From assembly GCA_965204815.1 (NCBI GenBank), contig OZ242014.1, positions 485,654 to 549,653 on the forward strand: a stretch of DNA of 64,000 nucleotides, in the 5' to 3' direction. The notes beneath the pieces are model-generated. The model did no database searches and was not told the DNA's origin. It saw nothing but the letters and a program-made list of their open reading frames with translations. Shown piece by piece: positions 6,417 to 46,870 of the stretch. The DNA comes from Dehalococcoidia bacterium. GTDB lineage: Bacteria > Chloroflexota > Dehalococcoidia > Lucifugimonadales > CATOSD01. Within the stretch, counting starts at the first letter, position 1, and the number at the start of each line of letters is the position of its first letter. A program made the position numbers and the translations under genes.

Positions 6417-7324
6417 TGGCAATGCAAGGCGGCAGTTTCGCAGCGGTAACCGAGGCGCAGCTAACCGGGCTCAGGCCAAAGCAGCCCCTCGTCAAGCAGG
6501 TGTGGACCACCCTGCTCAGCAACCCCAACATGCTCGTTGGGCTCATCATCGTGCTCTTCTTCGGCGTCGTGGCCGTTACGGCGCCGATCATAACGTTCAT
6601 CAACCCCTACGAGCTCAACATGAGCGAGAGGCTTGTGGGCCCCAGCGGCATCCACTGGTTCGGCACCGACAGCCTGGGACGCGACCTCTACGGCCTCGTC
6701 GCCTACGGCGCGCGCATCTCCCTGTTCGTCGGCGCTTCCGTCGCCATAGCCAGCTCCGTCGTCGGCGTCTTCATCGGCGTCACCGCCGGCTACTTCCGCT
6801 GGCTCGACGACATCGTCATGCGCTTCATGGACGGCCTCATGGCCATCCCCGGCATCCTCTTCGCCATCGTGCTCATGGCCCTCCTGGGCGGCAGCCTCTT
6901 CAACGTCATCATCGCCATCACCGTGGTAGACAGCCCACGCACCGCCCGCCTCATCCGCTCCGCCGTGCTCAGCATACGCGAGCAGATGTACATCGAGGCC
7001 GCGCGCGCTTTCGGCGCCCCATCCTGGCGCATCCTCTTCTACCACGTCATGCCCAACACCTTCGCGCCCCTCATCGTGCAGGCCACCTTCCTGTTCGCCA
7101 CCGCCATCCTGGTCGAGGCCAGCCTCAGCTTCCTCGGCGCCGGCGTCCCGCCCACCACCCCCACCTGGGGCAACACCATCGGCGAGGGCCGCACCCACGC
7201 GCTCACCGCGCCCTGGGTCGTCTTCTTCCCCGGCCTCGCGCTCTTCCTCGTCAGCATGGCCGTCAACCTCTTCGGCGACGGCCTCCGCGACAAGCTCGAC
7301 CCCAAACTCCGCGGCAGAGGCTAA
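6416..7324 (+). CDS. ABC permease, DppC/OppC family
   Basis: HWFGTDSLGRD, YGARISL, YIEAARAFGA and GDGLRDKLDP; overlaps the stop of the previous gene. Confidence 0.9.
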   Translation: MAMQGGSFAAVTEAQLTGLRPKQPLVKQVWTTLLSNPNMLVGLIIVLFFGVVAVTAPIITFINPYELNMSERLVGPSGIHWFGTDSLGRDLYGLVAYGARISLFVGASVAIASSVVGVFIGVTAGYFRWLDDIVMRFMDGLMAIPGILFAIVLMALLGGSLFNVIIAITVVDSPRTARLIRSAVLSIREQMYIEAARAFGAPSWRILFYHVMPNTFAPLIVQATFLFATAILVEASLSFLGAGVPPTTPTWGNTIGEGRTHALTAPWVVFFPGLALFLVSMAVNLFGDGLRDKLDPKLRGRG

Positions 7325-7334
7325 TTCCCGCAAT

Positions 7335-7546
7335 CCCCTCTCCCTTGATGGGTGAGGGTGAACGAAGAGCGCACTACCGCTAGTCCCTTCCCCCTCGACG
7401 GGGGAAGGCTAGGATGGGGGTGACGAACAGCCCGCCACCACTAATCACCTCTCCCTCGATGGGAGAGGGCCAGGGTGAGGGTGAACGAAAAGCCCGCCAC
7501 CGCTAATCACCTCTCCCTCGATGGGAGAGGGCCAGGGTGAGGGTGA
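7335..7546 (+). repeat. family-B REP-like palindromes (4 copies) upstream of ssrA
   Basis: CCCTCTCCC-N5-GGGAGAGGG-N3-GGGTGAGGGTG plus the variant CCTTCCCCC-N5-GGGGGAAGG-N3-GGATGGGGGTG. Confidence 0.9.
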
Positions 7547-7549
7547 CTG

Positions 7550-7558
7550 TGCTATAAT
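7550..7558 (+). promoter_or_regulatory. extended -10 promoter of ssrA
   Basis: TGCTATAAT ending 11 nt before the tmRNA 5' end. Confidence 0.7.
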
Positions 7559-7569
7559 ACCCCCGATGT

Positions 7570-7924
7570 GGGGACGCGCGGGTTCGACAGGGGAAGTTCT
7601 TGCGGGATTGCAGGCCGAGACGCCATCCACCTCGTTAAACGGTGGCAAAAAGAAGTAACTGGCGACAGAGAACTTCAGCTAGCCGCCTAACCGCGGCTAC
7701 GTCCACCCCCTCCTTACCCCGAGGGAGCGGACTGGGCGACGCAATTCGGGGTGCTGTCCGGGCAGACGCCGATACCCCGGACCCAAGACCATCGGCTGGC
7801 CTTTGCGGTTGCCCCCGCCGGCAGAGGGCCGCAGAGGTAAGAACAATCCGCTGGCTAAGCCTGTAGCATATCCCAGCCAAGGTTTCTTCTGGACGGGGAG
7901 TTCGACCCTCCCCCGTCTCCACCA
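7570..7924 (+). ncRNA. ssrA: tmRNA
   Basis: 5' GGGGAC..GGTTCGAC pairs with 3' GTCTCC-A-CCA (G:U at position 3, Ala identity). T-arm GGGAGTTCGACCCTCCC. Tag ORF 7661-7690 encodes GDRELQLAA* after AGTAACT. Confidence 0.95.
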
Positions 7925-7962
7925 CCCCCCATTCGCCAGAAACAACATCCGCGCCGCCGCTC

Positions 7963-8124
7963 GTCCCCTCTCCCTCGACGGGAGAGGGCTAGGGTGAGGG
8001 TGATAATGAGGGCGCTACCGCTCGTCCCCTCTCCCTCGATGGGAGAGGGTCAGGGTGAGGGTGGACAATGAGCGCGCTACCGCTCGTCCCCTCTCCCTTG
8101 ATGGGAGAGGGCCAGGGTGAGGGT
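7963..8124 (+). repeat. family-B tandem array (3 copies, ~61-bp period)
   Basis: Direct copies of the palindrome with near-identical linkers (..ATGAGCGCGCTACCGCTC). Confidence 0.9.
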
Positions 8125-8128
8125 AAAG

Positions 8129-8554
8129 ATGAGCCAGGTCGAAAGGGCGCGAAGCCTGAGAAAACAATCAACCGACGCCGAGCGCGTTCTGTGGAAGAAC
8201 CTTCGCCGCCGCGAACTCGCCGGGTGGAAATTCCGTCGGCAGGCGCCGATAGGCCCATACATCGTGGACTTCGTGACGTTCGATGGGAAGCTGATTGTCG
8301 AGGCGGATGGTGGCCAGCACGCCGAAAGCAAGCAACGTGACGAAAAACGAACAGCTTGGCTATCGAAAGAGGGTTTCCGTATCCTCAGGTTCTGGAACAA
8401 CGACGTGCTCACCAACACCGGAGCGGTCCTCGAAACCATCAGAGTCGAGTTGGAAGGCAACGAGTCCCCTCTCCCTCGATGGGAGAGGGCCAGGGTGAGG
8501 GTGACAATGAGCGCGCCGCCGCTCGTCCCCTCTCCCTCGATGGGAGAGGGCTAG
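8129..8554 (+). CDS. DUF559 / Vsr-like (PD-(D/E)xK) endonuclease
   Basis: ARSLRKQSTDAERVLW..KFRRQAPIGPYIVDF..LIVEADGGQH..RD..L..GFRILRFWN. It has no stop of its own; the frame ends at a TAG inside the second downstream repeat. Confidence 0.9.
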   Translation: MSQVERARSLRKQSTDAERVLWKNLRRRELAGWKFRRQAPIGPYIVDFVTFDGKLIVEADGGQHAESKQRDEKRTAWLSKEGFRILRFWNNDVLTNTGAVLETIRVELEGNESPLPRWERARVRVTMSAPPLVPSPSMGEG

Positions 8555-8687
8555 GGTGAGGGTGACAATGAGCGCGCCGCCGCTCGTCCCCTCTCCCTCG
8601 ATGGGAGAGGGCTAGGGTGAGGGTGACAATGAGCGCGCTACCGCTCGTCCCCTCTCCCTTGACGGGAGAGGGTCAGGGTGAGGGTGA
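8464..8687 (+). repeat. family-B tandem array (4 copies, 61-bp period)
   Basis: Copies start at 8464, 8525, 8586 and 8647. Confidence 0.9.
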
Positions 8688-8721
8688 AAGATCAGCGGCA
8701 TCCACCGTCAAGGAGCCTTAC

Positions 8722-9444
8722 GTGACCAAAGCGCGAGTTAGACGCGCCGCCTTCACCCCCATCCTAACCCTACGGCAGGCTCAGGGCAGGCTCTTCCCCC
8801 TGCGAGGGGGAAGGGACTTGGTGGCCCTCGCCGCCCTCGCCCTCCTCGCCGCCCTCGCCCTCCTCGCCTGCGCCCAGCCCGCCGCGTCCCCCTCCCCCAC
8901 GCCCCCGCCCGCAGTCGCGCCGCCTGCCACGTCCACGCCCGCCCCCACGCCCACGCCCACCGCGACTCCCGCGCCTACCGCCACCGCCGCGCCAACCCCC
9001 ACCCCCACCGTCGCGCCACCCGAACTCCAGCTCGGCGCCCCCGCCCCCGACTTCCAGGTCACCCGCTTCAACGGCGACACCCTCCGCCTCAGCGACCTCC
9101 GCGGCCAGGTCGTCGTCCTCAACTTCTGGGCCTCCTGGTGCCCACCCTGCCGACGCGAAATGCCCTCCTTCCAAGACGCCTGGCTCGCCTCCCGCGACGA
9201 CGGCGTCGTCTTCGTCGGCCTCGCCTCCGGCGACCTCGAGCCCGACGCCCGCGCCTTCGCCCAGCACGTCGGCGTCACCTACCCCCTCGGCCTCGACCTC
9301 GACGGCGCAGTCGCCAACGCCTACCTCGTCCGCGTCATGCCCACCACCTACTTCATCGACCGCGAAGGCCTCCTCCAGCGCAAACTCTCCGGCTTCGTAA
9401 ACCTCGGCGTCCTCAAAGTCTTCATAGCCGGCCAAACCCAGTAA
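8722..9444 (+). CDS. TlpA/ResA-like thiol-disulfide oxidoreductase lipoprotein
   Basis: GTG 8722 after AAGGAG. Lipobox LLAC, PT linker, LRGQVVVLNFWASWCPPCRREMP and PTTYFIDREG. Confidence 0.85.
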   Translation: MTKARVRRAAFTPILTLRQAQGRLFPLRGGRDLVALAALALLAALALLACAQPAASPSPTPPPAVAPPATSTPAPTPTPTATPAPTATAAPTPTPTVAPPELQLGAPAPDFQVTRFNGDTLRLSDLRGQVVVLNFWASWCPPCRREMPSFQDAWLASRDDGVVFVGLASGDLEPDARAFAQHVGVTYPLGLDLDGAVANAYLVRVMPTTYFIDREGLLQRKLSGFVNLGVLKVFIAGQTQ

Positions 9445-9502: not shown

Positions 9503-9873
9503 TGTCATTCCGAGCGCAGCCGAGGAATCTAGTGCCCTTGCCAACGAGCCCGCCACCTTACATCCCGAGCGCCCCTTCCCCCCTGTCATTCCGAGCGCCC
9601 CTTCCCCCCTGTCATTCCGAGCGCAGCCGAGGAATCTAGTGCCCTTGCCAGCCAGCCGCCCCCCCTGTCATTCCGAGCGGAGCCGAGGAATCTAGTGCCC
9701 CTGCCAGCCAACCGCCCCCTCCCATTCCGAGCGCAGCGCACCCCCCTCTCCCCCTGTCATTCCGAGCGGAGCGCCTCTTCCCCCCTCCCATTCCGAGCGG
9801 AGCGCCTCCTCCCCCCTCCCATTCCGAGCGCCCCTTCCCCCCTGTCATTCCGAGCGTAGCCGAGGAATCTAGT
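9503..9873 (+). repeat. family-A REP-like array
   Basis: Several TGTCATTCCGAGCG(C/G/T)AGCCGAGGAATCTAG copies plus half copies, separated by C-rich linkers. Confidence 0.9.
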
Positions 9874-9933
9874 GTGCCTGCCAACCACCCTCCCCATTGA
9901 CAAACCCCCCGCCTACCGGCCATAGTGAAACAC

Positions 9934-10287
9934 ATGCGACTGCCGTCAAAGGAAGCCGTCGGCCTCACCCTATTCTTTGTGCTGCTGGCGGCCTCGTTGC
10001 TCGTAGTGCTACTCGGCGCGGAAAAACTACCCTCCGGCGCCTTCCGGATCATCCGGTACATAGTCACCGAAATGGAGGCCTTCGTCGTCGCCTCCGGCGC
10101 CCTGGCCTACAGCTCCACAGAAGGAGGAACCATGATAGCCGAAGCATTCCTCAAAAAGCGCCAACAAAAAGGCCGCGAGGAGGAGCGCGCCGCCTGGATG
10201 GCTTGGTACGAGGCCAACCGCGAGCACCTGAAAGGCACCACACCCCCGCCCTTTATGCGAGACTCGAAAGAAGAGGACCAACCATGA
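9934..10287 (+). CDS. hypothetical: two TM segments fused to a small charged domain (internal start at 10132)
   Basis: TTGACA(9897)-N18-CATAGT precedes ATG 9934. Hydrophobic N-half; C-half MIAEAFLKKRQQKGREEERAAW; paralog at 16789. Confidence 0.6.
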   Translation: MRLPSKEAVGLTLFFVLLAASLLVVLLGAEKLPSGAFRIIRYIVTEMEAFVVASGALAYSSTEGGTMIAEAFLKKRQQKGREEERAAWMAWYEANREHLKGTTPPPFMRDSKEEDQP

Positions 10288-10445
10288 TAGCCGAAGCATT
10301 CCTCAAGAAACGCGAACAAAAAGGCCGGGAGGCAGGCCGCCGCCAGGTCGACGCCGAGTGGCGCCCCTGGTATGAGCGCTTGCAGGCCGCCAAACAGCGC
10401 GGCGAACCCTTCGACGAACCCCCGCCAGAGAAGGCGAAACCATGA
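10284..10445 (+). CDS. small hypothetical protein MIAEAFLKKREQKGRE..WRPWYERLQAAKQRGEPFDEPPP
   Basis: RBS GAGGA and ATGA overlap; paralogous to the C-halves of 9934-10287 and 16789-17187. Confidence 0.7.
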   Translation: MIAEAFLKKREQKGREAGRRQVDAEWRPWYERLQAAKQRGEPFDEPPPEKAKP

Positions 10446-10624
10446 CCACCGAAGAACGCCTCGGCACACTCGAAGAACGCACCACCCAGCACGACGCCGC
10501 CATATCCGACGTCCGCGCCGAGCTCCGCGCCCTCAACAGCCGAATCGACCGCGTGTTCCTCGCCATACTGGGCATAGGCGCGGCCCAAATCGCCTTGCTG
10601 ATCACCCTCATACTCCGCAGCTAA
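10442..10624 (+). CDS. small coiled-coil protein with C-terminal TM
   Basis: MTTEERLGTLEE heptads plus hydrophobic tail; ATGA coupling. Confidence 0.7.
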   Translation: MTTEERLGTLEERTTQHDAAISDVRAELRALNSRIDRVFLAILGIGAAQIALLITLILRS

Positions 10625-10644
10625 GGAACCAACGGGGAAGAACC

Positions 10645-10893
10645 ATGACCACCGAAGAACGCCTCGGCACCCTCGAAGAACGCACCACCCAGCACGACGC
10701 CGCCATCGCCGACATCCGCGCCGAACTGCGCCAGGGATTCGCCGACGTCCGTGCCGACCTCCGCTCCGAGATACGCGCCGTCAACCTGCGCGTCGACTCC
10801 CTCAACGCCCGCTTCGACCGCCTCTTCTACACCCTCCTCGGCCTCCTCATCGCCCAGGCCGGCGTAATCCTCACAGTCGTCCTACGAACCTAG
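10645..10893 (+). CDS. small coiled-coil protein with C-terminal TM (paralog)
   Basis: Same first ~21 residues as 10442; RBS GGGGAAG. Confidence 0.7.
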   Translation: MTTEERLGTLEERTTQHDAAIADIRAELRQGFADVRADLRSEIRAVNLRVDSLNARFDRLFYTLLGLLIAQAGVILTVVLRT

Positions 10894-10915
10894 CGCCAGC
10901 GGCAAAGGACCAACC

Positions 10916-11125
10916 ATGAACGACGCCACACAACAGACCCTGTTCGAACTGGACAAGCGCGTAGGCGTTATCGAGGCAGAGCTCAAACACCTCGCCACCA
11001 AAGCCGACCTGAGCCTGCTGAGAGCCGACGTCGAAAAGGCCATCAACAACCAGACCCGCTGGATGGTAGGCGCCATCATCGCCACCGCCTCGTTGGTGGT
11101 GCTCATCACCAGGATCTTGGCTTAG
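10916..11125 (+). CDS. DUF1640/CCDC90-like coiled-coil membrane protein
   Basis: HLATKADL motif, NQTRW then TM; RBS AAAGGA. Confidence 0.7.
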   Translation: MNDATQQTLFELDKRVGVIEAELKHLATKADLSLLRADVEKAINNQTRWMVGAIIATASLVVLITRILA

Positions 11126-11134
11126 AGGAATCCC

Positions 11135-11344
11135 ATGACCACCACCGAACAACGCATGACAATCCTGGAAACCGAGTTCAGAACCGAACTCAAACACCTC
11201 GCCACCAAAGCCGACCTCAAAGACCTCGAAACCCGCCTAACGTCCGACATGAAAGAACTCGAAACCCGCCTCATGCTCCGCCTCGGCGGACTCATGGTCG
11301 CCGGCTTCGGCGCCGTCATAGCCGCCCTCCGACTATGGCAGTAA
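11135..11344 (+). CDS. DUF1640/CCDC90-like coiled-coil membrane protein
   Basis: HLATKADLKDLETRL..RLGGLMVAG; RBS AGAGGA. Confidence 0.75.
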   Translation: MTTTEQRMTILETEFRTELKHLATKADLKDLETRLTSDMKELETRLMLRLGGLMVAGFGAVIAALRLWQ

Positions 11345-11371
11345 CCACCTATCCCTTCCCCCCCTCCCCCC

Positions 11372-11525
11372 TGTCATACCGAGCGCCCCTTCCCCCCTGT
11401 CATTCCGAGCGCAGCCGAGGAATCTAGTGCCCTTGCCAACGAGCCCGTCACCTTACATCCCCTCCCCCCTGCCATTCCGAGCGCCCCCTCCCCCCTGTCA
11501 TTCCGAGCGCAGCCGAGGAATCCAG
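11372..11525 (+). repeat. family-A REP-like array
   Basis: Two full and several half copies; the linker TGCCCTTGCCAACGAGCCCG also occurs at 9533. Confidence 0.85.
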
Positions 11526-11571
11526 TGTCCACTCCCTCCCACACCACCCCAAAATACCGCCCCCACGCCCA

Positions 11572-11600
11572 TTGACACCACACAACATGTCCTATACACT
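11572..11600 (+). promoter_or_regulatory. sigma70-type promoter of the large surface-protein gene
   Basis: TTGACA-N17-TACACT. Confidence 0.65.
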
Positions 11601-12021
11601 TTCCGCTGTCGTATGAAATGTGTCCGGCATCCAACCCCAGTGCGTCCGCGCAAACGCACATCGGAGTCTACGCTTTGACATTTCCCGTGCGCCAGGGACA
11701 CCCGCCCGCCATCACGCAGGCGCCCCAACCCTCGCCCACCTCCGCTCTGCCCGCACCCAGCGGCGCAGAGCCTTTCTGCGTCTACCACCCACCCTCACTC
11801 CGCGACGAAAGCGAGGTCTACCATGCTTACGCCTTCCGCCTCTTCAGGAGCGGACCCTCCCCACCTTAAAGCCGGCCCCCGCCTCGTCACTCCCGCCAAA
11901 GCGGGAAACCAGGGCGTGGGTCACAACAAAGGAGCACGGACTCATCGACATCTTCTCTAATCTTCCAACCAGCAACCCCAACATCAACCATCCGTCAAAC
12001 CCAACTCACAGGGGGAAATAA

Positions 12022-15000
12022 TTGAAAAGCTCAGTTAGGATACTAGCCATAGCCCTCGCGCTGGCCTTCCTGCTCCTGGCTCGCACCGCCTTCCAGGACA
12101 GCCCCACCAGCGCGAAGGAGCACATAGACCTCAAGGACGGCGAGGCTTCCTTCGCCGACCCCATCGAGCCCAAGAACGAGGCCAAGTACCTCGGCTTCGG
12201 CAGCACCGCCACCCAAACGGTGACCTTCTACATCAAGAGCGAGGACCTCGGCACACAGATCACCGCCAGGACGTCATCGGTGGATTTGGCCGCTGCTACA
12301 AGCACGTTGACCGCTCCCGCGCCACTCGACGCCGCTCTCATCTACACTCTCCGGGGCGGCAGAACGGGGCCTGCCACCATTGATCAGATGGGCACAACTT
12401 CAGCGGTGACGGATATATCAGCTGTAAACCTCGCCGATGCCGCCGCGACCACAACCATCGCAGCGGGTCTCGACGCCTTGTATTGCGATACGAGCGCTGC
12501 GATTGAGGATTATGTCTTGGAGTACGCCGGCGGTGACGCTTACACCAAGGAGGACGCGGCGGACGCCATGATCAAAGTCGTCGGCTGGGGTGTAGCAACT
12601 ACCACCATTGAAGGTGCCGCAGGCGCCTGCCCTACCGGTGCTGCGCGAGCAGAGGGCGATCGCATGGCAATTACGGATAGTAAGCGCAACGAGCTTGCTA
12701 TGGCCGCGGTAGCCGCAATAAGGCAACTCAACACAGACGAGGAAAATGCGGCCAAGGAAGCCAACGATCTGCTCTACAGCTACAAGAGCGGCAACGACTA
12801 CGTAGCGTCCACCTCCACGAACCCCGCGCGGCGCTATACGAACCAAGTGCTCGCTGACCCAAGTGCGCCAACGCGCGACACGGTGGGCAGCACAGAAGAC
12901 AACAAAAAGCCTCTGGCTGCAGGCGGCGTCAAGATCACGGTGGTGGATACGGACACGTCTGGCACCACGCCTGTCGTAACCACCAGGACACCGCCGACTT
13001 TCGACGACAACAGAGATGGAGGGGTGTTCCGCATAGCCTTTGCGCTTGGCGCCGCGCCAAGCCCAGGCACTAGGGAGATCACCGTCGACGCGACCTTCGA
13101 CATCGTGGATGTGTACGAGGCATCGGACATGGCGTCGACGACAACGCTCTATCCCGATTACACCAGCGGCTACAGGCGCGCGTACGTGAGCAGCGGCTCC
13201 GACAGCGGCCAGTGGGTGGAGATCAAGGAAGTGGTGTCGACCACTGACGAGAATGGTTCGCCTACCTCCAACCTGTTCCGGGGCACTGTCGTTATCACCA
13301 ACGACACCAGCCAACTCACGGGCAACAACCCGCCAATCTACGCGCAGGACGGCGACACGCTCACCCTGCAGGTCTTCGACGAGAACGACAACCGCAGCAG
13401 CGACGTGCTCGCCACGGCGACCGCGCTCATCGACGACTCCCCGCCGACCATCAGCGACCTCAACCCCGCTGACAAGAGCGTCATCGACGACGACACGCTG
13501 CAGATCTCCTTCAACGTCAACGACGAGGGCGCCGGCCTTGACTTCAGGGCCGTCGACGAGGAAAAGGTCGTGACGAAGGTCGAAGCGCAGGTTATCCAAG
13601 ACGACAAGATGGGCAAGAAGTGCACGCTGGCCGGTGGCGACAAGTACCAGGGTGACATCGACAACGCCGGCGGCAACGCCAGCCGTGTCGGAGTCCTGGT
13701 GTCGCCGAGTGGTCAGAAGTTCTCCGGCCGGTGCCCCGACATCGTGAAGACGGCGGGCGGCGGCAAGTTCAACCTCATAATCACGTCGCGGGACCTCGCC
13801 GGCAACATAGACGAGCACATCACGCAGCTCACCATCGACACGGCCAAGCCGAGGGTGGACGAGAACCCGGAGGTGGGCCAGGCCTGGGACGAGGACAAGA
13901 ACAAGCGCAAGAACAGCGTGAACTCCATACTCATTGAGTTCAGCGAGTCGCTGGACCCTGACACCGTGGCCGCCACCGACTTCACGGTCGCCGGCTACAC
14001 CATCGACACCGTCCAGGTCGTGGGCACCGACGACGACAACAACAAGAACCTCAACAGGTTCGTCGTGCTCACGCTCACCGAGGACCTCGCCAACAACGCG
14101 CGGCCCAGCGTGACCGTCACCGGCGTGGACGACGTCGCCGGCAACACCATACAGAAGGTGACGCGCACCTCGGACAACAAGATCGCGGCCAAGCTCACTG
14201 TGGTGCCCTTCTCGGCGCTCATAGCCAAGGACAAGGAGCTGGCCATCAGCTTCACCGCCGACGAGGCGCTGCGCGCGACGAGCGACATGTACAAGACCGA
14301 GGCGTCGGTCAACGGCGACAAGGACGGCTTGGCCATCAAGGTGGCCGCCGATACCATGGGCGGCTCCGGCACCTTCAAGCAGAAGACGTTCGACAAGAGC
14401 CGCGCCTACGGCGTGATGATCCGCGCCGTGGACGTGAATAGCAACAAGACCGACGAGGGCGCCGAGAGCGTCGACGACGAGGACCTGACGCTGAAACTCC
14501 AAGCCGATAAGGATGAAGGCGAGACCTTCGAGGTAACGCTCAAGAAGTGGCCGCCCGCTGACGCCAACCTGGACGGCGACTTCGGCGGAGAGGTCGTGGC
14601 CAAGATCGACGGCAATGAGGTCGCATCCTCGACCGACGCCGACGACACGGTCAACTGGAGCAACGGCAAGGTGACGCTGAAGGTTAACGCCGGCGAGGAG
14701 GTGGCCAAGGACGCCACTGTCACCCTCGTCTACAAGTACGTCACCGCCGACCAGGTAATCCAGGTCGACGTGACCAAGCCGACGATGACCTCGAACCCGA
14801 AGGACAACACCGAGACCGACTACGCCTCCGGCGCGATCCAGTTCATCTGGAGCGAGGCCGACGAGTACGCCGGCGACAGCTACAAGACGGTCACGCTCAA
14901 CTCTGCCATGCACGAGGCGAGCGGCACGAGCACGGACATACTGTCCAAGCTCAGGACCAACGACAACAAGACCTGGACGTTCAACCCCGAGGCGCCCCTG

Positions 15001-15651
15001 GCGCTCGGAGCGCACGAGTTCACGCTCAAGGCCACCGACGCCGCTGGCAACAGCAACACTGTGTCGGTCACGATAACGGTCATCGAGCGTAAGCCGGTAA
15101 CGATTAACCTCAGCCCCGGCTGGAACCTCATCTCGCTCCGCGGCATGCCCGCAAGCTCGGACGTAAACGCCATATTCGCCACCTCCAGTGGCGTAAGCGT
15201 GGTGTCCCAGTACGACGGGCGCAGGGTCTCCCCCTGGACCGTCTGGAACCGCCGCGAAGACGGCAGCCTGTCGTCATCGCCCGCGGGCAGGACGGTCATC
15301 GACTCCGGCCTGGGCATGTACGTCCTCAGCGACGGCACGCCTCTCAAGGTCGACATACCCGGCACGTCGAGAGACAACCCGGACGTAGTGCCGCCGTCCA
15401 TCGAGCTGATACCCGGCTGGAACCTGGTGGCCGTCATCCTGGTAAGTGAGGACACGGTCGGAGTGAACGAATACCTGCCTGAGGGCGCGTGGTCGCGGGC
15501 ATTCCGCCTCAACAACACCACCGGGCAGTTCCAGAGCTTCTCGCCGCTTACGAGGCAAGACAACGGAATGTTCAACGACGATCCGCCGCTCAGTTCGGGC
15601 AACGCCCTCTGGGTCTACGCCACCAAGGCGGCGACCATCGTACCCAAGTAG
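12022..15651 (+). CDS. large secreted Ig-like-repeat surface (S-layer-like) protein, 1209 aa
   Basis: Signal peptide; Asp/Thr-rich; repeated D-x-AGN Ig-like motifs (RDLAGN, DDVAGN, TDAAGN); C-terminal LSPGWNLIS / LIPGWNLVA pair. Confidence 0.75.
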   Translation: MKSSVRILAIALALAFLLLARTAFQDSPTSAKEHIDLKDGEASFADPIEPKNEAKYLGFGSTATQTVTFYIKSEDLGTQITARTSSVDLAAATSTLTAPAPLDAALIYTLRGGRTGPATIDQMGTTSAVTDISAVNLADAAATTTIAAGLDALYCDTSAAIEDYVLEYAGGDAYTKEDAADAMIKVVGWGVATTTIEGAAGACPTGAARAEGDRMAITDSKRNELAMAAVAAIRQLNTDEENAAKEANDLLYSYKSGNDYVASTSTNPARRYTNQVLADPSAPTRDTVGSTEDNKKPLAAGGVKITVVDTDTSGTTPVVTTRTPPTFDDNRDGGVFRIAFALGAAPSPGTREITVDATFDIVDVYEASDMASTTTLYPDYTSGYRRAYVSSGSDSGQWVEIKEVVSTTDENGSPTSNLFRGTVVITNDTSQLTGNNPPIYAQDGDTLTLQVFDENDNRSSDVLATATALIDDSPPTISDLNPADKSVIDDDTLQISFNVNDEGAGLDFRAVDEEKVVTKVEAQVIQDDKMGKKCTLAGGDKYQGDIDNAGGNASRVGVLVSPSGQKFSGRCPDIVKTAGGGKFNLIITSRDLAGNIDEHITQLTIDTAKPRVDENPEVGQAWDEDKNKRKNSVNSILIEFSESLDPDTVAATDFTVAGYTIDTVQVVGTDDDNNKNLNRFVVLTLTEDLANNARPSVTVTGVDDVAGNTIQKVTRTSDNKIAAKLTVVPFSALIAKDKELAISFTADEALRATSDMYKTEASVNGDKDGLAIKVAADTMGGSGTFKQKTFDKSRAYGVMIRAVDVNSNKTDEGAESVDDEDLTLKLQADKDEGETFEVTLKKWPPADANLDGDFGGEVVAKIDGNEVASSTDADDTVNWSNGKVTLKVNAGEEVAKDATVTLVYKYVTADQVIQVDVTKPTMTSNPKDNTETDYASGAIQFIWSEADEYAGDSYKTVTLNSAMHEASGTSTDILSKLRTNDNKTWTFNPEAPLALGAHEFTLKATDAAGNSNTVSVTITVIERKPVTINLSPGWNLISLRGMPASSDVNAIFATSSGVSVVSQYDGRRVSPWTVWNRREDGSLSSSPAGRTVIDSGLGMYVLSDGTPLKVDIPGTSRDNPDVVPPSIELIPGWNLVAVILVSEDTVGVNEYLPEGAWSRAFRLNNTTGQFQSFSPLTRQDNGMFNDDPPLSSGNALWVYATKAATIVPK

Positions 15652-15696
15652 CCCCTCGGGGTTGCTAACCCAAAATTAGCCAGGAAGCAATGAAAA

Positions 15697-15748
15697 GCGG
15701 CCCCCTGCCCGTCACTCCCGTCAAACCGGGAACCAGGCAGGGGGCCGC
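15697..15748 (+). terminator. long hairpin after the surface-protein gene, with a REP variant in its loop
   Basis: GCGGCCCCCTGCC...GGCAGGGGGCCGC. Confidence 0.6.
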
Positions 15749-15785
15749 CCTACTTACGCCCCAGTCCCTCCCCCCTCACTCCCCC

Positions 15786-16014
15786 CGTCATTCCGAGCGC
15801 CTTCGTCCCCCTGTCATTCCGAGCGCCCTCCCCCCGTCATTCCGAGCGCCCTCCCCCCTGTCATTCCGAGCGCAGCCGAGGAATCTACCGTCCCTTCCCC
15901 CTCGACGGGGGAAGGTCAGGATGGGGGTGCCAACAAGCCCCCTACCTCTTACTCCCCTCTCCCTCGTCCCCCTGTCATTCCGAGCGCAGCGAAGCGGAGC
16001 CGAGGAATCTAGTG
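15786..16014 (+). repeat. mixed family-A / family-B REP cluster
   Basis: A copies ending near 15886 and 16011; B variant at 15890-15929. Confidence 0.85.
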
Positions 16015-16407
16015 CCCCTGCCACCCACCGAGCGTGAAAGACACAAGGAACCCCACATAGCCACCAGCCGCCGCCTGCTGGAACAGGCCGAGCGCGAGTA
16101 CCGGGCAGGCGACGTCCTACAAGCGTCCGAGAAGGGATGGGGCGCGGCCGCGCACGCAATCAAAGCCATAGCCGAAGAGCGCGGCTGGGAGCACGGCCGG
16201 CACGGCCACCTCGTCAGGGCCGCGCGCCGAATCTCCAACGAGCTGGATCAGCCCAGGGTATGGGAGCTATTCCAGGTCGCCAGCGCCCAACACCAGAACT
16301 TCTACGAAGGCTGGCTCGACAACGAAGACGTCGAACAAGCCCTCGTCAGAGTACGCGAGCTCCTCGCCCTCCTCGAATCCGCCGCGCCGCAAGCACCGCG
16401 CCACTAG
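16012..16407 (+). CDS. PaREP1-like (HEPN-related) protein
   Basis: GDVLQASEKGWGAAAHAIKAIAEERGW.H..H and HQNFYE motifs; paralog at 45601. Confidence 0.75.
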   Translation: MPLPPTERERHKEPHIATSRRLLEQAEREYRAGDVLQASEKGWGAAAHAIKAIAEERGWEHGRHGHLVRAARRISNELDQPRVWELFQVASAQHQNFYEGWLDNEDVEQALVRVRELLALLESAAPQAPRH

Positions 16408-16439
16408 CCCCCACCGCTCGTCCCTCCCCCCTCGCCCCC

Positions 16440-16681
16440 TGTCATTCCGAGCGCCCTCCCCCCTGTCATTCCGAGCGCCCACCCCCTGTCATTCCGAGCG
16501 CAGCCGAGGAATCTAGAGTCCCTTCCCCTCGCCCCCTACCGCTCGTCCCTCCCCCCCCCGTCATTCCGAGCGCCCTCGCCCCCCTGTCATTCCGAGCGCA
16601 GCCGAGGAATCTAGCGCCCCTTCCCCTCGCCCCCCACCGCTCGTCCCCTCTCCCTCGATGGGAGAGGGCCAGGGTGAGGGT
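16440..16681 (+). repeat. mixed family-A / family-B REP cluster
   Basis: Two full A copies, half copies, and a B copy at 16643-16681. Confidence 0.85.
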
Positions 16682-16788
16682 GTGAAAGGCACAACAAGCC
16701 CCCCACCCCCCGGTGTTGACAACAACCGGGCCGGATTATAGGTTGTACACGTCCCAACTGATTCAGAGGGCCATGCGAAAGGAGTAGA

Positions 16789-17187
16789 TTGCGACCGGAC
16801 AAATCACGCGAAGGGCTATACCTGGCGCTGCTTGCGGCGGCGCTGACGGCGGGATTGGCAGCAGTGGCCTGGTACGAGGTCAGGCACAACACGACCGACG
16901 GCGTGCTCGAAACGGTCCTCGCCGTATTCAAGCATATGCAGGGTGTAATAGTGTTCGCCGCGGCGGCAATCTACATCGCAGTGGAAGGAGGATACATGCT
17001 GGCAGAGAGATACCTGCGCAGGCGGTACCGCGAGGGCCGCGAAGACGGGCGCGAAGAAGGCCTGCGGGAAGGCCGGAAGGAACGCGACGCGGCGTGGTCG
17101 GCGTGGCACCAGCGCATGTTAGACGCGCAAAGGCGAGGCGACCCCTTCGACGAGCCCCCGCCCAAAATGGAAGACACTCCCGGCTAA
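16789..17187 (+). CDS. hypothetical: two TM segments plus small charged domain (internal start at 16996)
   Basis: Promoter TTGACA(16716)-N17-TAGGTT; AAGGAG-TTG start; C-half MLAERYLRRRYREGRE..WSAWHQRMLDAQRRGDPFDEPPP. Confidence 0.7.
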   Translation: MRPDKSREGLYLALLAAALTAGLAAVAWYEVRHNTTDGVLETVLAVFKHMQGVIVFAAAAIYIAVEGGYMLAERYLRRRYREGREDGREEGLREGRKERDAAWSAWHQRMLDAQRRGDPFDEPPPKMEDTPG

Positions 17188-17316
17188 CCCCCTACCGCTC
17201 GTCCCCTCTCCCTCGATGGGAGAGGGCCAGGGTGAGGGTGAACAAGCGTGAAGCCGCCCCAGGGCCGTTGACGCGCCGACCGCCATCGTAGACAATACCC
17301 GCGAAAGCGAGGCTAA

Positions 17317-17634
17317 ATGACCACCGAAAGCCGCCTCGGCGCCCTCGAAGGCACAACCGCCGAGCACGCCGCCGCCATCGCCGGCCTCAGAGACGACCTG
17401 CGCGAGGGCCTCGCCGACGTGCGCACCGAGCTACGCGACGCCCGCGCCGAGGCCGCCGCCCTCCGAACCGCCGCCCTGCGAGCCGAGATGCGCGCCGACT
17501 TCGCCGCCCTGCGAGCCGAGATGCGCGCCATCGGTGCGCGCATGGACCGGATCACGCTGGCCCTTGTCGGCGGAAGCATCGCCTTCACGCTCGCCCAGAT
17601 TGGCACAATCATCACAATCATCCTGCGAACCTAG
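17317..17634 (+). CDS. coiled-coil protein with C-terminal TM (paralog of 10442/10645)
   Basis: MTTESRLGALE; duplicated AALRAEMRA; promoter TTGACG(17268)-N17-GACAAT. Confidence 0.7.
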   Translation: MTTESRLGALEGTTAEHAAAIAGLRDDLREGLADVRTELRDARAEAAALRTAALRAEMRADFAALRAEMRAIGARMDRITLALVGGSIAFTLAQIGTIITIILRT

Positions 17635-17667
17635 ACCCTACCGCTCGTCCCCTCTCCCTCGCCCCCT

Positions 17668-17741
17668 GTCATTCCGAGCGCCCACCCCCTGTCATTCCGA
17701 GCGCCCACCCCCTGTCATTCCGAGCGCAGCCGAGGAATCTA
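17668..17741 (+). repeat. family-A copies overlapping the stop of the enoyl-CoA hydratase
   Basis: GAGGAATCTA at 17732-17741 supplies the minus-strand TAG. Confidence 0.85.
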
Positions 17742-18467
17742 CCGCCCCGCCATCACCCCCACCGCCAGCCGCCCCTCCATCTCCAGCCCCCGCCCCAGCG
17801 GCCCGTCCATCCCGTACCGCAGCGCCCGCTTCGCCGCCGACACCGCCCTCGGCTCCAGCGCCGCCAGCGACTCCGCCAGCGCCAGCGCCTCCCCCGCCAG
17901 CGCGTCCCGCGACACCACCCGGTGCACCAGACCCGCCCGCCGCGCCTCCTCCGCCGACAGCCGACGCCCCGCCAGCAGCATCTCCAGCGCCGTACCCAGG
18001 CCCGCCACCCGCGGCAGCGTCTGGCTCCCGCCCGCCGCCGGAGCCATCCCCAGCGCCGTCTCCGGCATCGCGAACGTCGCGTCCTCCGACGCGACCCGCA
18101 GGTCGCACAGGCACGCCATCTCCACCCCCGACCCTATGACGTACCCGTGCAGCGCCGCCACAATCGGCTTGTCGATAGCCAGGAACAGCCCCCACACGTC
18201 CCGTTCCCACCGCACCGCCCGCGCCACCGCCTGCGACGGCGCCGTCCCGAACTCCGACAAGTCCGCCCCTGCGCAAAACGCCCTCTCCCCTGCCCCGCTC
18301 AGCACCACCGCCCGCACCTCCGCGTCATCCCGCACCGCCTCCAGCAGCGTGAACAGCTCATCCCGCATCGCCACGTTATACGCATTCAGCCGCCGCGGCC
18401 GATTCAGCGTCAACCGCGCCACCGCCCCCGCCTTCTCAAACACCACCGTCCCAACATCCGACGTCAT
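17739..18467 (-). CDS. enoyl-CoA hydratase/isomerase
   Basis: LTLNRPRRLNA, AFCAGADL, KPIVAALHGYVIGSGVEMA and FAMPE. Confidence 0.9.
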   Translation of the reverse strand: MTSDVGTVVFEKAGAVARLTLNRPRRLNAYNVAMRDELFTLLEAVRDDAEVRAVVLSGAGERAFCAGADLSEFGTAPSQAVARAVRWERDVWGLFLAIDKPIVAALHGYVIGSGVEMACLCDLRVASEDATFAMPETALGMAPAAGGSQTLPRVAGLGTALEMLLAGRRLSAEEARRAGLVHRVVSRDALAGEALALAESLAALEPRAVSAAKRALRYGMDGPLGRGLEMEGRLAVGVMAGR

Positions 18468-18549
18468 AGCCTACCTCGCTTCCGTCGCCACAGCCTACCT
18501 CGCTTCCGTCGCCACAGCCTACCTCGCTTCCGTCGCCACAGCCTACCTC
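18468..18549 (-). repeat. 24-bp tandem repeat (3.4 units) of RBS plus mini-ORF
   Basis: (GAGGTAGGCTGTGGCGACGGAAGC)x3 then GAGGTAGGCT-ATG on the minus strand. Confidence 0.9.
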
Positions 18550-18579
18550 TCTCGCCCCTCTCCATACACCCACGCCCCC

Positions 18580-19207
18580 GTCCATTCCGAGCGCCCCCAT
18601 CCCCCCGTCATTCCGAGCGCCCTCTCTCCCCCTGTCATTCCGAGCGCAGCGAAGCGGAGCCGAGGAATCTAGTGTGCTTGCCAGCCACCACCCCTGCCCC
18701 ACGCCCCCTGTCCGCCATCACCCCTACACCACCCGCCGTCATACCCTGTCCCCTGTCACTCCGAGCGCCCGCTCTCCCCCCGTCATTCCGAGCGCAGCCG
18801 AGGAATCTAGTGTGCTTGCCAGCCACCACCCCTGCCCCACGCCCCCTGTCCGCCATCACCCCTACACCACCCGCCGTCATACCCTGTCCCCTGTCACTCC
18901 GAGCGCCCGCTCTCCCCCCGTCATTCCGAGCGCAGCCGAGGAATCTAGTGTGCCTGCCAGCCACCACCCCTGCCCCACACCCCCTGCCCGCCATCACCCC
19001 CACACCACCCGCCGTCATACCCTCTCCTCCCGTCATTCCGAGCGCCCGCTCTCCCCCTGTCATTCCGAGCGCCCGCTCTCCCCCTGTCACACCGAGCGCC
19101 TGCTCTCCCCCCGTCATTCCGAGCGCCCCCATCCCCCTGTCATTCCGAGCGCCCGCTCTCCCCCTGTCATTCCGAGCGCAGCGAAGCGGAGCCGAGGAAT
19201 CTAAAGC
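18580..19207 (+). repeat. large family-A array including a 138-bp higher-order unit x3
   Basis: GAGGAATCT at 18662, 18800 and 18938 (138-bp spacing) and at 19194. Confidence 0.9.
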
Positions 19208-19209
19208 GC

Positions 19210-19521
19210 CTATTCCGCCAGATCGTACCAATCTCTCGACAAGTCCTCCCACCTCGGATTCATCGACTCGATCAGCACTTCCTTCTTGCTCCTGCGCCAC
19301 TTCTTGAGCTGCTTCTCCCGCTCGAGCACGGCCATGACGTCTGAGGACTCCTCGTAGTACACCAGCCAGGTAATGTTGTACTTCCTCGCGTGGCCGTCCA
19401 CGAACTTCCGCTTATGCTCGTAAACTCGCCTGACGAGGTCGTTTGTTACGCCGACGTACAGGTTTCGCCTGCTGTTGGACAACATGTAGACGTAGTACTT
19501 GTGGGTGGATCCTGAGTACAT
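19210..19521 (-). CDS. small GIY-YIG nuclease (UPF0213/YhbQ-like)
   Basis: YYVYMLSN..LYVGVTNDLVRRVYEHK..KYNITWLVYYE..REKQLKKWRRSKK..LIE..NP.W.DL. Confidence 0.92.
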   Translation of the reverse strand: MYSGSTHKYYVYMLSNSRRNLYVGVTNDLVRRVYEHKRKFVDGHARKYNITWLVYYEESSDVMAVLEREKQLKKWRRSKKEVLIESMNPRWEDLSRDWYDLAE

Positions 19522-19523
19522 GG

Positions 19524-20107
19524 GCTTTAGATTCCTCGGCTACGCTCGGAATGACAAAGCGGACGGCCGCTATTCCCGGAGTGATGGAAACCCCCTACCT
19601 CGCAGTCCCCTCTCCCTCGCCCCTCTGCTATTCCCCGCGCCCTCTCCCCCCGTCATTCCGCGCGTCCCCTTTTCCCCCTGTCATTCCGAGCGTCCCCTCT
19701 CCCCTGTCATTCCGCGCGTCCCCCTTTCCCCTGTCATTCCGAGCGTAGCCGAGGAATCTAGTGTGCTTGCCAGCCACCACCCCTGCCCCACGCCCCCTGC
19801 CCGCCATCACCCCTACACCACCCGCCGTCATACCCTGTCCCCTGTCATTCCGAGCGCCCGCTCTCCCCCTGTCATCCCCGCGCCCCACTCCCCTGCCATT
19901 CCGAGCGCCCTCTCCTCCCGTCATTCCGAGCGCCCTCTCCCCCGTCACTCCGCGCGCCCCCCTCTCCCCTGTCATTCCGAGCGCCCCCCTCTCCCCTGTC
20001 ATTCCGCGCGTCCCCTCTCCCCCGTCATTCCGAGCGCCCCCCTCTCCTCCTGTCATTCCGCGCGTCCCCTTTCCCCCTGTCATTCCGAGCGTAGCCGAGG
20101 AATCTAG
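19524..20107. repeat. family-A array right of the GIY-YIG gene (first copy inverted)
   Basis: GCTTTAGATTCCTCGGCTACGCTCGGAATGACA at 19524-19556, then forward copies up to 20107. Confidence 0.9.
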
Positions 20108-20928: not shown

Positions 20929-21217
20929 ACCGGACCTACCTCTCAGTCCCCTCTCCCTTGATGGGAGAGGGTTAGGGTGAGGGTGAACGTGTGCGGGCCG
21001 CCCTCCCCCAACCCCCATTGACACCCACGCACATCCGTGCTACTCTCTCTCCATGACACGCCGCCACCAGCCCAACCACCCAGGAACACTGAACGGAAAG
21101 AAACAAAAAGAACAGTTTGCGACAGAGTTTTTCGGGTCTCCCCTACCTCTTAGTCCCCTCTCCCTTGATGGGAGAGGGTCAGGGTGAGGGTAAAAAACGG
21201 GATGAACGTGCCCGCCC

Positions 21218-41840: not shown

Positions 41841-42469
41841 CTATGGCGACGCGAGTGCTGGTCAACGTGCTGGTGGCGCTGCCGTTCTTCGTGGTCGGCG
41901 TTGTGGGGTTGGTGCGCGACGACCTGCCGGATGATGCATCGGCGGCGGTGCTGTCCATCGGGGCGCTGGTCGTCCTGGTCGGGCTCTACGTGAGCGTTCT
42001 GTCGCGCCCACGGCTCAATCTCATGGCGAACGAAGAGACGCTGGAGTTGCGGCACCCTTCGATGAAGCCGGCGTTCGCCCGGATACTGCTGAGCGTCCCC
42101 TTCTTCCTGGGTGCGGGATACCTGTTGCAGTTCACGACTCTGCCCTACGTCTATCCGTTCGTGCCCTTTGTGATTGCGATGTACCTGTACTTTCGCGGGG
42201 TCATCAAGTACTGGGTCAACCACCACACCACCTACTACGTGACGAGCCGGCGGGCGGTGCATATGTACCGGTTCATCTGGCTGGATACGACGGAGATACC
42301 GGTGAACTCGATCAACTCCATCTCGGAGACGAGGAGTTTCATCGAGATGCTCACGGGCCGGGGGAGCGTGCTGGTGGCGAGCGGGATAGGGGCGCGGCAC
42401 AAGGTTCGGATGGGGGAGATAGACAGTCCGGGGCCGGTGGCGGCGGCGCTTCGGGGGCTTGTGCCGTAG
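41837..42469 (+). CDS. membrane protein with bacterial PH (bPH_2-like) domain
   Basis: 4 TM segments, then TTYYVTSRR..IPVNSINSI..TGRGSV. Confidence 0.7.
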   Translation: MTMATRVLVNVLVALPFFVVGVVGLVRDDLPDDASAAVLSIGALVVLVGLYVSVLSRPRLNLMANEETLELRHPSMKPAFARILLSVPFFLGAGYLLQFTTLPYVYPFVPFVIAMYLYFRGVIKYWVNHHTTYYVTSRRAVHMYRFIWLDTTEIPVNSINSISETRSFIEMLTGRGSVLVASGIGARHKVRMGEIDSPGPVAAALRGLVP

Positions 42470-42477
42470 GCGGGCCG

Positions 42478-42710
42478 CTTTAGATTCCTCGGCTGCGCTG
42501 CGCTCCGCTCGGAATGACAGAGGGGGCATGGAATGACCGGGGGAGTTGCGCTCGGAATGGCAGGGTGGTTGGCGGAGAGGGGGCTGGCGGAAGGCTCGTC
42601 GTCACCCTCACTCTGGCCCTCTCCCATCGAGGGAGAGGGGACGAGCGGTAGGGCGGTCCCCGTCGTCGTCACCCCCATCCTAGCCTTCCCCCGTCGAGGG
42701 GGAAGGGACT
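42478..42710 (-). repeat. inverted family-A and family-B copies
   Basis: CTTTAGATTCCTCGGC..CGCTCGGAATGACA; TCACCCTCACTCTGGCCCTCTCCCATCGAGGGAGAGGG; TCACCCCCATCCTAGCCTTCCCCCGTCGAGGGGGAAGGG. Confidence 0.85.
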
Positions 42711-42839
42711 TGTCGGACAGGCTCTAGTTGATACAGGTTCCGGTATCAAAACCAAATTGACAGAGGCGGCAATCTGGTGGTAGGCTGAACGCATTCTGGG
42801 CAAGTGTTTGCTTTTTTCACAAGCGCTGGGAGGAATGCT

Positions 42840-44276: not shown

Positions 44277-44345
44277 CACGAACCCGGCGGCGGCCGGACG
44301 GTCCACACCGCTTCCGGCGCGCCGCCGCACAACGGAGAGGCGCAG

Positions 44346-44669
44346 ATGCCACAGTCAGGACAGGACATGCTCGACGAGGCGATCGCCACCTGCCGGCAGA
44401 TCGCCGACGGCCTGGGAGTTCAGAACCAGGCGTGGGAAGACTCGGTAGTCGAGATCGTCGAGAAGTTCGACGAGGTCAGCGACACGTTCTTTTTCAAGAC
44501 GATGCCGAGCGTCCCGGTGACCAGGAGCTGCAACCGCGACGCGGCCGCGGCGCTGGAACTCAAGAGCGCCCAGGACTGGGACTCCTTCGGCCCCGCGCTC
44601 GAACAGCTAATCGCGAGCGCGCAGAACGTGATAGACAAGGCCGGCATGAGGGGAACGACCCTCACGTGA
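44346..44669 (+). CDS. hypothetical protein
   Basis: Clean ORF with RBS GGAGAGG and host-like codon usage. Confidence 0.7.
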   Translation: MPQSGQDMLDEAIATCRQIADGLGVQNQAWEDSVVEIVEKFDEVSDTFFFKTMPSVPVTRSCNRDAAAALELKSAQDWDSFGPALEQLIASAQNVIDKAGMRGTTLT

Positions 44670-44693
44670 CGCCTCCCGCCCAGGCAGGTGACA

Positions 44694-45590: not shown

Positions 45591-45600
45591 GGCCACCGCC

Positions 45601-46000: not shown

Positions 46001-46870
<870 letters not shown>

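Follow-up and report, generated by a model that had tools for sequence, protein, structure and literature searches.

What holds three short sequence blocks together in a bacterial repeat, and which enzyme, if any, goes with it? The question is raised by a 64,000-nucleotide stretch of the genome of a Dehalococcoidia bacterium (phylum Chloroflexota; assembly GCA_965204815.1, contig OZ242014.1, positions 485,654 to 549,653), called the window below, in which three head-to-tail copies of a repeat unit of about 41 nucleotides (nt) occupy positions 7383-7546 and further copies frame a small gene of the DUF559 family. Each unit is built from (A)GTC, a pyrimidine arm of nine bases (Y9, segment 1), a loop, a purine arm of nine bases (R9, segment 2), three further bases (N3), a nine-base purine-rich tail (segment 3) and TGA. 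We conclude that these units are probably class II intrastrand-triplex-motif repeats of the kind known as BoxC, PIT or TMECO, that their single strand is predicted to fold as a hairpin with an antiparallel tail, that they likely behave like repetitive extragenic palindromic (REP) elements, and that DUF559 is their likely enzyme.

The first unit, of type B', reads GTC, CCTTCCCCC (segment 1), tcgac, GGGGGAAGG (segment 2), cta, GGATGGGGG (tail) and TGA, and the two units that follow it, of type B, read ACCTCTCCC, tcgat, GGGAGAGGG, cca, GGGTGAGGG and TGA. Both of these type B units carry an A at stem position 1, a mismatch that leaves a stem of 8 base pairs (bp). An initial annotation of the window had described segment 2 as the reverse complement of segment 1 and segment 3, in both types, as segment 2 in mirror image, except that the fourth position has T in place of A; it had added that B and B' differ at two positions, each of them altered in all three segments. 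The sequence itself bears out every one of these points, and the positions that the annotation gave for type B' (7383, 15890, 42669 in inverted orientation and 56356) are correct, counted from GTC. Hairpins of type B, with up to two mismatches allowed, matched the window 15 times compared with 0.02 times expected from shuffles, and those of type B' 6 times compared with 0.00. The full three-segment pattern was found 11 times for type B and 4 times for type B' (7386, 15893, 42672 on the minus strand, and 56359), with none expected for either.

We scanned the whole genome, a single contig of 3.31 Mb with 64.7% GC and 95.7% completeness, for a Y9 arm joined through a 3-7-nt loop to its R9 complement, one mismatch being tolerated, and followed after a 2-5-nt spacer by a tail triad-compatible at 8 or more of 9 positions. 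This yielded 305 units, 175 on the plus and 130 on the minus strand, of which 125 belong to type B', 86 to type B and 25 to a third type, B'' (TCCTCTCCC / GGGAGAGGA / AGGTGAGGG), which the initial annotation did not list; copies of one type hardly vary. In B'', segment 2 carries an A at its 3' end that recurs at the 5' end of the tail, as in a mirror, and T again stands at tail position 4. A single hybrid copy (CCTTCTCCC / GGGAGAAGG / GGATGAGGG) has one of the two B/B' positions altered, in all three segments. The flank consensus sets the unit boundaries at (A)GTC on the 5' side and TGA on the 3' side. Metagenome contigs that share only 7383-7423, 7966-8003 and 56356/7-56396 with the window, and diverge outside, give the same boundaries; many of them share exactly 7383-7423, and contigs of four sequencing runs share only 56356/7-56396.

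The minimum-free-energy fold predicted for single-stranded DNA (ViennaRNA) is the 9-bp hairpin with the tail left free, at -10.3 to -10.4 kcal/mol (-10.3 kcal/mol for 7383-7423); third strands lie outside this software's model. We rejected two other pairings. Terminal GTC does not pair with GAC in the minimum-free-energy fold, and the GAC is not conserved. An alternative hairpin between segment 1 and the tail would contain one T-T mismatch in type B, and two mismatches plus two wobble pairs in type B'.

The relation between arms and tail was examined in a pool of pyrimidine-first hairpins from this genome (696 strand readings) and from loci L001-L056 of other genomes (232 readings), with the window's own locus (L027) and that of Escherichia coli (L057) left out. 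Hairpins were read on both strands, so that about half of the readings face the wrong flank. We kept readings with a C-poor 3' flank containing at least 5 G, a filter independent of the mirror rule that 450 readings passed, and with purines at the last 9 arm bases, and took the commonest tail for each distinct arm core; the A-rich type AAAGGGAGA failed the G filter. Thirteen of 16 distinct arm cores had a tail compatible at 9/9 mirrored positions, compared with 17 of 240 cross-type pairings, which average 7.13 of 9 matches. In 10,000 tail shuffles, neither the real mean nor the real count of perfect types was ever reached. Cores of 8 nt gave a similar picture (14/18 perfect versus 26/306). The initial annotation had raised the prospect of a tail varying independently of its stem; across this genome and the loci of other genomes, tails follow their arms perfectly in these 13 of 16 cores. 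A direct-repeat reading of the tail was rejected, being perfect in 1 of 16 types, namely type B, which is its own mirror.

At the mirrored positions, a tail G stands opposite a duplex G in 101 of 104 cells, and a duplex A stands opposite a tail A (23 cells) or T (16 cells) in 39 of 40, never opposite G. When the register is slid by 1 nt, these counts fall to 135/208 for G and 21/80 for A. The lengths of the G runs on either side of the spacer match as well (2/2, 3/3, 4/4 and 5/5). This pattern, in which G-C is faced by G and A-T by either A or T, is the code of the antiparallel purine motif (reverse-Hoogsteen), and corresponds to the G·G-C, A·A-T and T·A-T triads that the initial annotation had invoked; equivalence of A and T would not arise from a parallel duplex or from a two-fold-symmetric protein.

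At least 10 further types in other genomes obey the mirror rule, and the types come from several phyla. New combinations of arm and tail include GGGGGAGGG / GGGTGGGGG, GGGAGAGAG / GAGTGAGGG, GGGAGAAGGG / GGGATGAGGG, GGGAGAGGGGG / GGGGGTGAGGG, GGGGGAGAAG / GATGAGGGGG and the A-rich AAAGGGGGA / AGGGGGATT. As a control for polarity, the pattern reversed into class I order was near zero in genomes with hundreds of forward matches. These results show that the mirror relation is real and exceeds what chance or shared descent provides. Separately, we observed that the tails of nearly all types contain a single T. This T invariably faces an A-T pair and precedes a G, at a place where the triplex code permits A or T.

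BoxC, PIT and TMECO repeats have been known since the 1990s and have, to our knowledge, no known function, origin or partner protein. As described by Holder et al. (2015, NAR 43:10126; PMC4666352), TMECO is the same as BoxC of E. coli and as the PIT elements reported by Hoyne and Maher in 2000. It follows the pattern 5'-CCCTCNCCC N3-6 GGGNGAGGG N3 GGGNGAGGG, a class II purine-motif intrastrand triplex, and occurs 3610 times in 262 proteobacterial genomes. In vitro, TMECO formed a stable triplex and not a G-quadruplex: circular dichroism (CD) spectra were of triplex type, the structure melted at 70-82 °C, and 1H nuclear magnetic resonance (NMR) gave 18 sharp imino signals. Mg2+ had little effect. 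The authors linked the element to genomic instability (PMC4666352). Neither DUF559 nor the word stem 'covaria' occurs in PMC4666352.

Type B is an exact match to this published pattern (11 matches in the window versus 0 expected), and the two type B units inside 7383-7546 miss it by one base, the A at stem position 1. The repeats have the class II order (5' pyrimidine arm, purine arm, 3' reverse-Hoogsteen arm) with G·G-C and A/T·A-T triads. Like TMECO, BoxC and PIT, they are arranged 5'-Y-R-R-3', the last block being the third strand, are multi-copy and intergenic with little orientation bias, and stand singly, in pairs or in arrays. They differ in that B' (CCTTCCCCC...) and B'' (TCCTCTCCC...) fall outside the published pattern yet keep the triad code, in that the host belongs to the Chloroflexota and is neither a proteobacterium nor a cyanobacterium, and in number, with 305 copies in 3.3 Mb compared with the 23 reported in E. 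coli K-12. A further difference concerns the neighbourhood: Holder et al. never found remnants of a transposase or integrase nearby, nor any gene of mobility type, whereas the repeats here frame a DUF559 gene. The units also resemble H-DNA, the intramolecular triplex of homopurine-homopyrimidine mirror repeats in supercoiled duplex DNA, since their 3' half from segment 2 to the tail is likewise a mirror repeat of purines with shared purine-purine-pyrimidine triads, but H-DNA needs no complementary arm on the same strand, whereas here the duplex is provided by a covarying pyrimidine arm, so that the fold can arise within one strand, and the tracts are only 9 nt long. The hairpin-triplex reading of the initial annotation is therefore right, given the 13 of 16 perfect mirror tails and the published in vitro triplex for type B, but for type B it was already in print; measured against PMC4666352, what is new are the non-fitting types (B', B'' and others), the explicit covariation test and the host lineage.

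Could the units act as RNA hairpins, as stabilisers of messenger RNA 3' ends or terminators in the manner of REP elements, with a tail that is either incidental or a module for ribosome binding or a stop codon? We regard this as unlikely, despite some support from their placement. According to a crude open reading frame (ORF) caller based on GC at third codon positions (GC3), 277 of the 305 units are intergenic, and they are enriched downstream of genes, being about twice as common between convergent genes (67 over 417 gaps) as between divergent genes (36 over 417). The tail that ends 2 nt before the DUF559 start codon contains GAGGG. Units end in TGA, and the 3-nt spacers (for example 7409-7411 and 7989-7991) are for the most part a stop codon in reverse complement (TTA, CTA or TCA), as in 91% of B', 79% of B and only 6% of B'' units, so that a unit landing at the end of a gene may supply a stop codon in either orientation. 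Orientation relative to tandem neighbour genes is, however, weakly biased (105 units co-oriented versus 68 anti-oriented, a count inflated by the co-oriented arrays of the window), which argues against a role in the RNA of one strand. No U run follows the hairpin, and the mirror code would be left unexplained. Purine-motif triple helices do not form in RNA, according to literature cited in PMC4666352. As for a bias in replication strand, the cumulative GC skew of the assembly was too noisy to place an origin or terminus.

It is also improbable that the three blocks are read on duplex DNA by a protein with several half-sites, the mirror reflecting the geometry of binding. Strand polarity means that a two-fold-symmetric protein recognises repeats in direct or inverted arrangement and not in mirror arrangement. 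Equivalence of A and T at A-T pairs combined with strict G at G-C is the reverse-Hoogsteen code, which is untypical of a protein, and the rule is kept by widely differing sequence types. In favour of this explanation, a nuclease gene is genetically linked to the repeats, and a dimethyl sulphate (DMS) footprint of TMECO in vivo gave no triplex protection (PMC4666352).

Selection of the G-rich half (segment 2, spacer and tail) as a G-quadruplex, with the C-rich arm as a switch, is very unlikely. Type B does read G3N3G3N3G3N3G3, as the initial annotation had pointed out, and it is the only type with the canonical motif (four runs of at least 3 G separated by N1-7). B', the commonest type with 125 copies, has G runs of 5, 2, 2 and 5, which break the G3 tracts and keep the mirror, again as proposed, and B'' has runs of 3, 2, 2 and 3; neither makes three tetrads. 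Because B' is unable to form a three-tetrad G-quadruplex, it separates the two readings cleanly. A G-quadruplex would leave the positions of A free, yet 39 of 40 cells with a duplex A follow the mirror, as do A-rich types such as AAAGGGGGA / AGGGGGATT. Nor would it require the complementary arm to change along with the purine arm, as happens here. Published CD spectra could not by themselves tell a triplex from a parallel G-quadruplex, but the 18 imino signals, which came from a type B oligonucleotide, were read by the authors as excluding a G-quadruplex (PMC4666352).

That the mirror is an accident of low-complexity G-rich sequence and of descent from a few master copies, with no structural selection, has in its favour that the genome holds only three main types of near-identical copies and that G-rich purine 9-mers often match (7.13 of 9 across types), but it is scarcely credible in view of 13/16 perfect tails versus 17/240 cross pairings, 0/10,000 shuffles, the matched G-run lengths, the spread of types over several phyla and the loss of signal in a register slid by 1 nt.

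Having found an intrastrand triplex motif to be the best description of the repeats, we turn to the gene they frame. On the plus strand, the cluster runs from the truncated unit through the three units at 7383-7546, a transfer-messenger RNA (tmRNA) gene, three type B units and the DUF559 gene to four type B units (Table 1). This gene, at 8129-8554, is the genome's only stand-alone copy, with two weak matches to PF04480 elsewhere inside frames of about 1580 amino acids (aa), and the arrays around it, of type B and next to the tmRNA gene, are the largest in the genome. The last upstream tail ends 2 nt before its start codon. Its homology spans 8129-8458, and the frame continues into the downstream repeats, ending at a TAG in a spacer. 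The protein matches Protein Data Bank (PDB) entry 3HRL, 'endonuclease-like protein', over residues 15-106 (E 6.5e-28), and is below the cut-off of the NCBIfam equivalog PRK09767 (105 versus 218). As in the very-short-patch repair endonuclease Vsr and in 3HRL, it has the Vsr-like fold of its family, with conserved acidic and His residues: D47, E58, D60 and H64 are invariant among 13 homologues, and the catalytic-type residues are intact. A transposase of the REP-associated tyrosine transposase (RAYT) type was rejected as the partner, as no match to PF01797 (Y1_Tnp) was found in this 95.7% complete genome.

We then compared DUF559 loci across genomes, using 26 homologous loci from a search of genome contigs and 30 from a 301-genome sample of the window's phylum, in which 88 of 301 genomes have a DUF559 homologue at E <= 1e-10 (a tally that includes the unpublished genome G038). 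The loci come from Chloroflexota, Alpha- and Gammaproteobacteria, Verrucomicrobiota, Acidobacteriota and Elusimicrobiota, and the best relatives are labelled Chloroflexota. Flanks were counted at the 54 loci with a tblastn match. At least 39 of these have one or more units within 200 nt of the gene; an upstream unit faces the gene at 24, a downstream inverted unit is present at 29, and both occur at 18, as an inward-facing inverted pair. The opposite orientations were seen at 8 and 5 of the 54, and the remaining 182 kb of the same loci contain 21 units, or 0.115 per kb. These flank counts are a lower bound, having missed L036, L042 and L052, each of which has a unit beside the gene.

Co-occurrence within the phylum was assessed with a degenerate Y9-R9-tail pattern in 297 genomes (G000 and three unpublished genomes were left out). 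Ten or more motif matches were present in 72 of 86 DUF559-positive genomes compared with 69 of 211 DUF559-negative ones, with medians of 76 and 3 matches, although these genomes are kin and not independent, so that co-occurrence p-values are overstated; a reversed-pattern control was near zero. By genome position and co-occurrence, these results suggest that the small DUF559 nuclease is likely to be the partner enzyme of the repeats. As a literature background, a search of titles and abstracts, with subscription journals outside its scope, returned PMC4666352 as the only paper on these repeats and no link between DUF559 and such repeats, and titles and abstracts of the literature naming DUF559 gave no activity for these proteins.

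Two side observations concern the same loci. The DUF559 genes of L022 and L024 (2501-2800), one from Acidobacteriota and one from Verrucomicrobiota, are sisters on branches of 0.14 and 0.06 with support of 100/100, a relation that suggests recent transfer between phyla. Upstream of DUF559 in L010 and L020 (Legionella and Tatlockia) lie arms CCCTCTCCCGCG / CGCGGGAGAGGG with a loop of about 35 nt, then ttg GGGAGAGGGG; this form is a long-loop version of the repeat.

Besides the kinship of the sampled genomes and the unprotected DMS footprint, several findings weigh against a triplex-forming repeat served by DUF559. On the structural side, triplex formation in cells is unproven, the evidence being from in vitro work with type B only. 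Three of the 16 types have 1 or 2 non-canonical triads: GGGGAAGGG with tail GGGATGAGG puts one A opposite G-C and comes from three sources, and the other exceptions are two singletons. At the window's own locus, the commonest type of the genome, B', flanks no DUF559 gene, and the arrays on either side of the gene are in direct orientation, unlike the inverted arrangement of most loci. Elsewhere, the DUF559 genes of L009 and L035 are framed by hairpins that have no mirror tail, and E. coli K-12 ycjD has at its 3' end only a degenerate hairpin, CCCTCTCCC-tgaaaga-GCGAGGGGG, with no intact unit present at the gene.

Other findings bear on how closely gene and repeat depend on one another. Among DUF559-negative genomes, 16 of 211 have at least 100 motif matches, and five such genomes were rechecked with PF04480, three giving no match and one only a fused frame of 2143 aa; DUF559 is thus not needed for the repeats to be present. 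Four species of one genus keep the DUF559 locus in synteny, which fits vertical inheritance, and in three it lies elsewhere. Repeat type does not cluster on the DUF559 tree (49 proteins, 22 of 45 inner branches open), and the 6 rows of the GGGGGAGGG type on this poorly resolved tree require 6 changes. Neither empty sites nor insertion polymorphism were found in contigs of runs X2, X3, X4, X6 and X8 over 6800-9100 and 41800-57200, so that mobility in this lineage is not established. Strain contigs break at the repeats, and one contig of run X3 bridges 56294-56413 with 110 unaligned letters instead of 118.

A known system close to a repeat with its own enzyme is REP/RAYT (REPIN). There, as here, hundreds of short, GC-rich, hairpin-forming extragenic repeats accompany a small single-copy gene of nuclease type that they frame and that is in part vertically inherited, as the synteny of the DUF559 locus in four species of one genus illustrates here. 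The present repeats differ in having no Y1_Tnp/RAYT, in framing a Vsr-like PD-(D/E)XK gene and in having a third, mirrored block; their flanking copies in the window are direct arrays, and an inward-facing inverted pair is found at 18 of 54 other DUF559 loci.

The mechanism we favour builds on the triplex-motif repeat and this analogy. When the DNA is single-stranded, the purine-rich tail, 3 nt beyond the 9-bp pyrimidine/purine hairpin, is predicted to lie antiparallel in the major groove, with G·G-C, A·A-T and T·A-T triads. The fold would be exposed when the DNA is transiently single-stranded, and it is this fold that selection would keep. The repeats would probably spread or be maintained like REP elements. 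By analogy to REP/RAYT, the enzyme that recognises and nicks them would be the Vsr-like DUF559 nuclease. The triplex is possibly the substrate of DUF559, as the initial annotation had suggested and as the genomic association would allow. With one DUF559 gene and three sequence types in this genome, an enzyme serving all of them would read shape more than sequence. A broader proposal, which we advance tentatively and consider rather doubtful, is that DUF559 proteins at large are structure-specific nucleases acting on a folded single-strand triplex and that, with the repeats, they make up a REP/RAYT-like, largely domesticated system over many phyla.

Table 1. Repeat units and genes in the window, with positions counted from its first letter
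Feature	Position	Strand	Details
Truncated unit	7336-7361	+	CCCTCTCCC, ttgat, GGGTGAGGG, TGA; without segment 2 and spacer
Type B' unit	7383-7423	+	segment 1 7386-7394 CCTTCCCCC; loop 7395-7399; segment 2 7400-7408 GGGGGAAGG; spacer 7409-7411; tail 7412-7420 GGATGGGGG; TGA 7421-7423
Type B unit, 8-bp stem	7447-7484	+	segment 1 7447-7455; segment 2 7461-7469; tail 7473-7481; TGA 7482-7484
Type B unit, 8-bp stem	7509-7546	+	segment 1 7509-7517; segment 2 7523-7531; tail 7535-7543; TGA 7544-7546
tmRNA gene	7570-7924	+	Rfam RF00023, 135.7 bits, E 5.9e-53; between repeat arrays
Array of 3 type B units	7963-8126	+	segment 1 at 7966, 8027 and 8089; period 61-62 bp
DUF559 gene, Vsr-like PD-(D/E)XK fold	8129-8554	+	PF04480, 142.5 bits versus cut-off 20.6; profile match 8135-8452
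Array of 4 type B units	8464-8687	+	segment 1 at 8467, 8528, 8589 and 8650; period 61 bp; orientation as in upstream array
B'-like unit with insert of about 23 nt between hairpin and spacer plus tail	8753-8817	-	hairpin CCTTCCCCC / GGGGGAAGA; tail GGATGGGGG; TGA
Type B' unit, solitary	15890-15930	+	full three-segment pattern match
Type B unit, solitary	16643-16683	+	pattern match
Type B unit	17201-17241		pattern match
Type B unit	20946-20986		pattern match
Type B unit	21153-21193		pattern match
Type B unit	42602-42642	-	tail GAGTGAGGG; adjacent to type B' unit, pair spanning 42602-42709
Type B' unit	42669-42709	-	adjacent to type B unit 42602-42642
Type B' unit, solitary	56356-56396	+	pattern match

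Some of these features call for comment. The truncated unit looks like the product of a deletion between two similar purine blocks, and the unit at 7509-7546 belongs to a 62-bp tandem array at 7350-7546. The insert of the unit at 8753-8817 is AGCCTGCCCTGAGCCTGCCGTAGG-like; the form with hairpin and insert has 14 copies in the genome, and in the related loci L012 and L025 a second small hairpin stands where this unit has its insert. The window also contains repeats of other kinds. A second, unrelated family at 9561-20091 consists of arrays with periods of 23-31 nt around CCCCCTGTCATTCCGAGCGC, some extended by AGCCGAGGAATCTAG, and includes a tandem of three 138-bp copies at 18653-19072. Repeats with periods of 72 and 144 bp at 40294-40671 resemble coding repeats of leucine-rich type, and at 60676-60836 two AT-rich copies of 80 bp in tandem (98% match) are unlike the GC-rich remainder of the window.

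For the repeats themselves, B' and B'' amount to natural compensatory mutants. In three types of this genome, and in over ten when all genomes are counted, the three blocks change in concert, and such joint changes are evolutionary evidence that triplex compatibility itself is maintained. The repeat-framed DUF559 gene provides a concrete candidate for the enzyme that these repeats have been missing. Should that link fail, a well-documented variant and a new host range of a known repeat class would still stand. If it is true, it would give a first function to a large nuclease family of 'unknown function' that includes E. coli YcjD. If the broader proposal on DUF559 proteins is true as well, one enzyme gene with three covarying types would show that shape, not sequence, is read, and a selfish or genome-shaping element would for the first time be seen to have a natural DNA triple helix as its recognition element.

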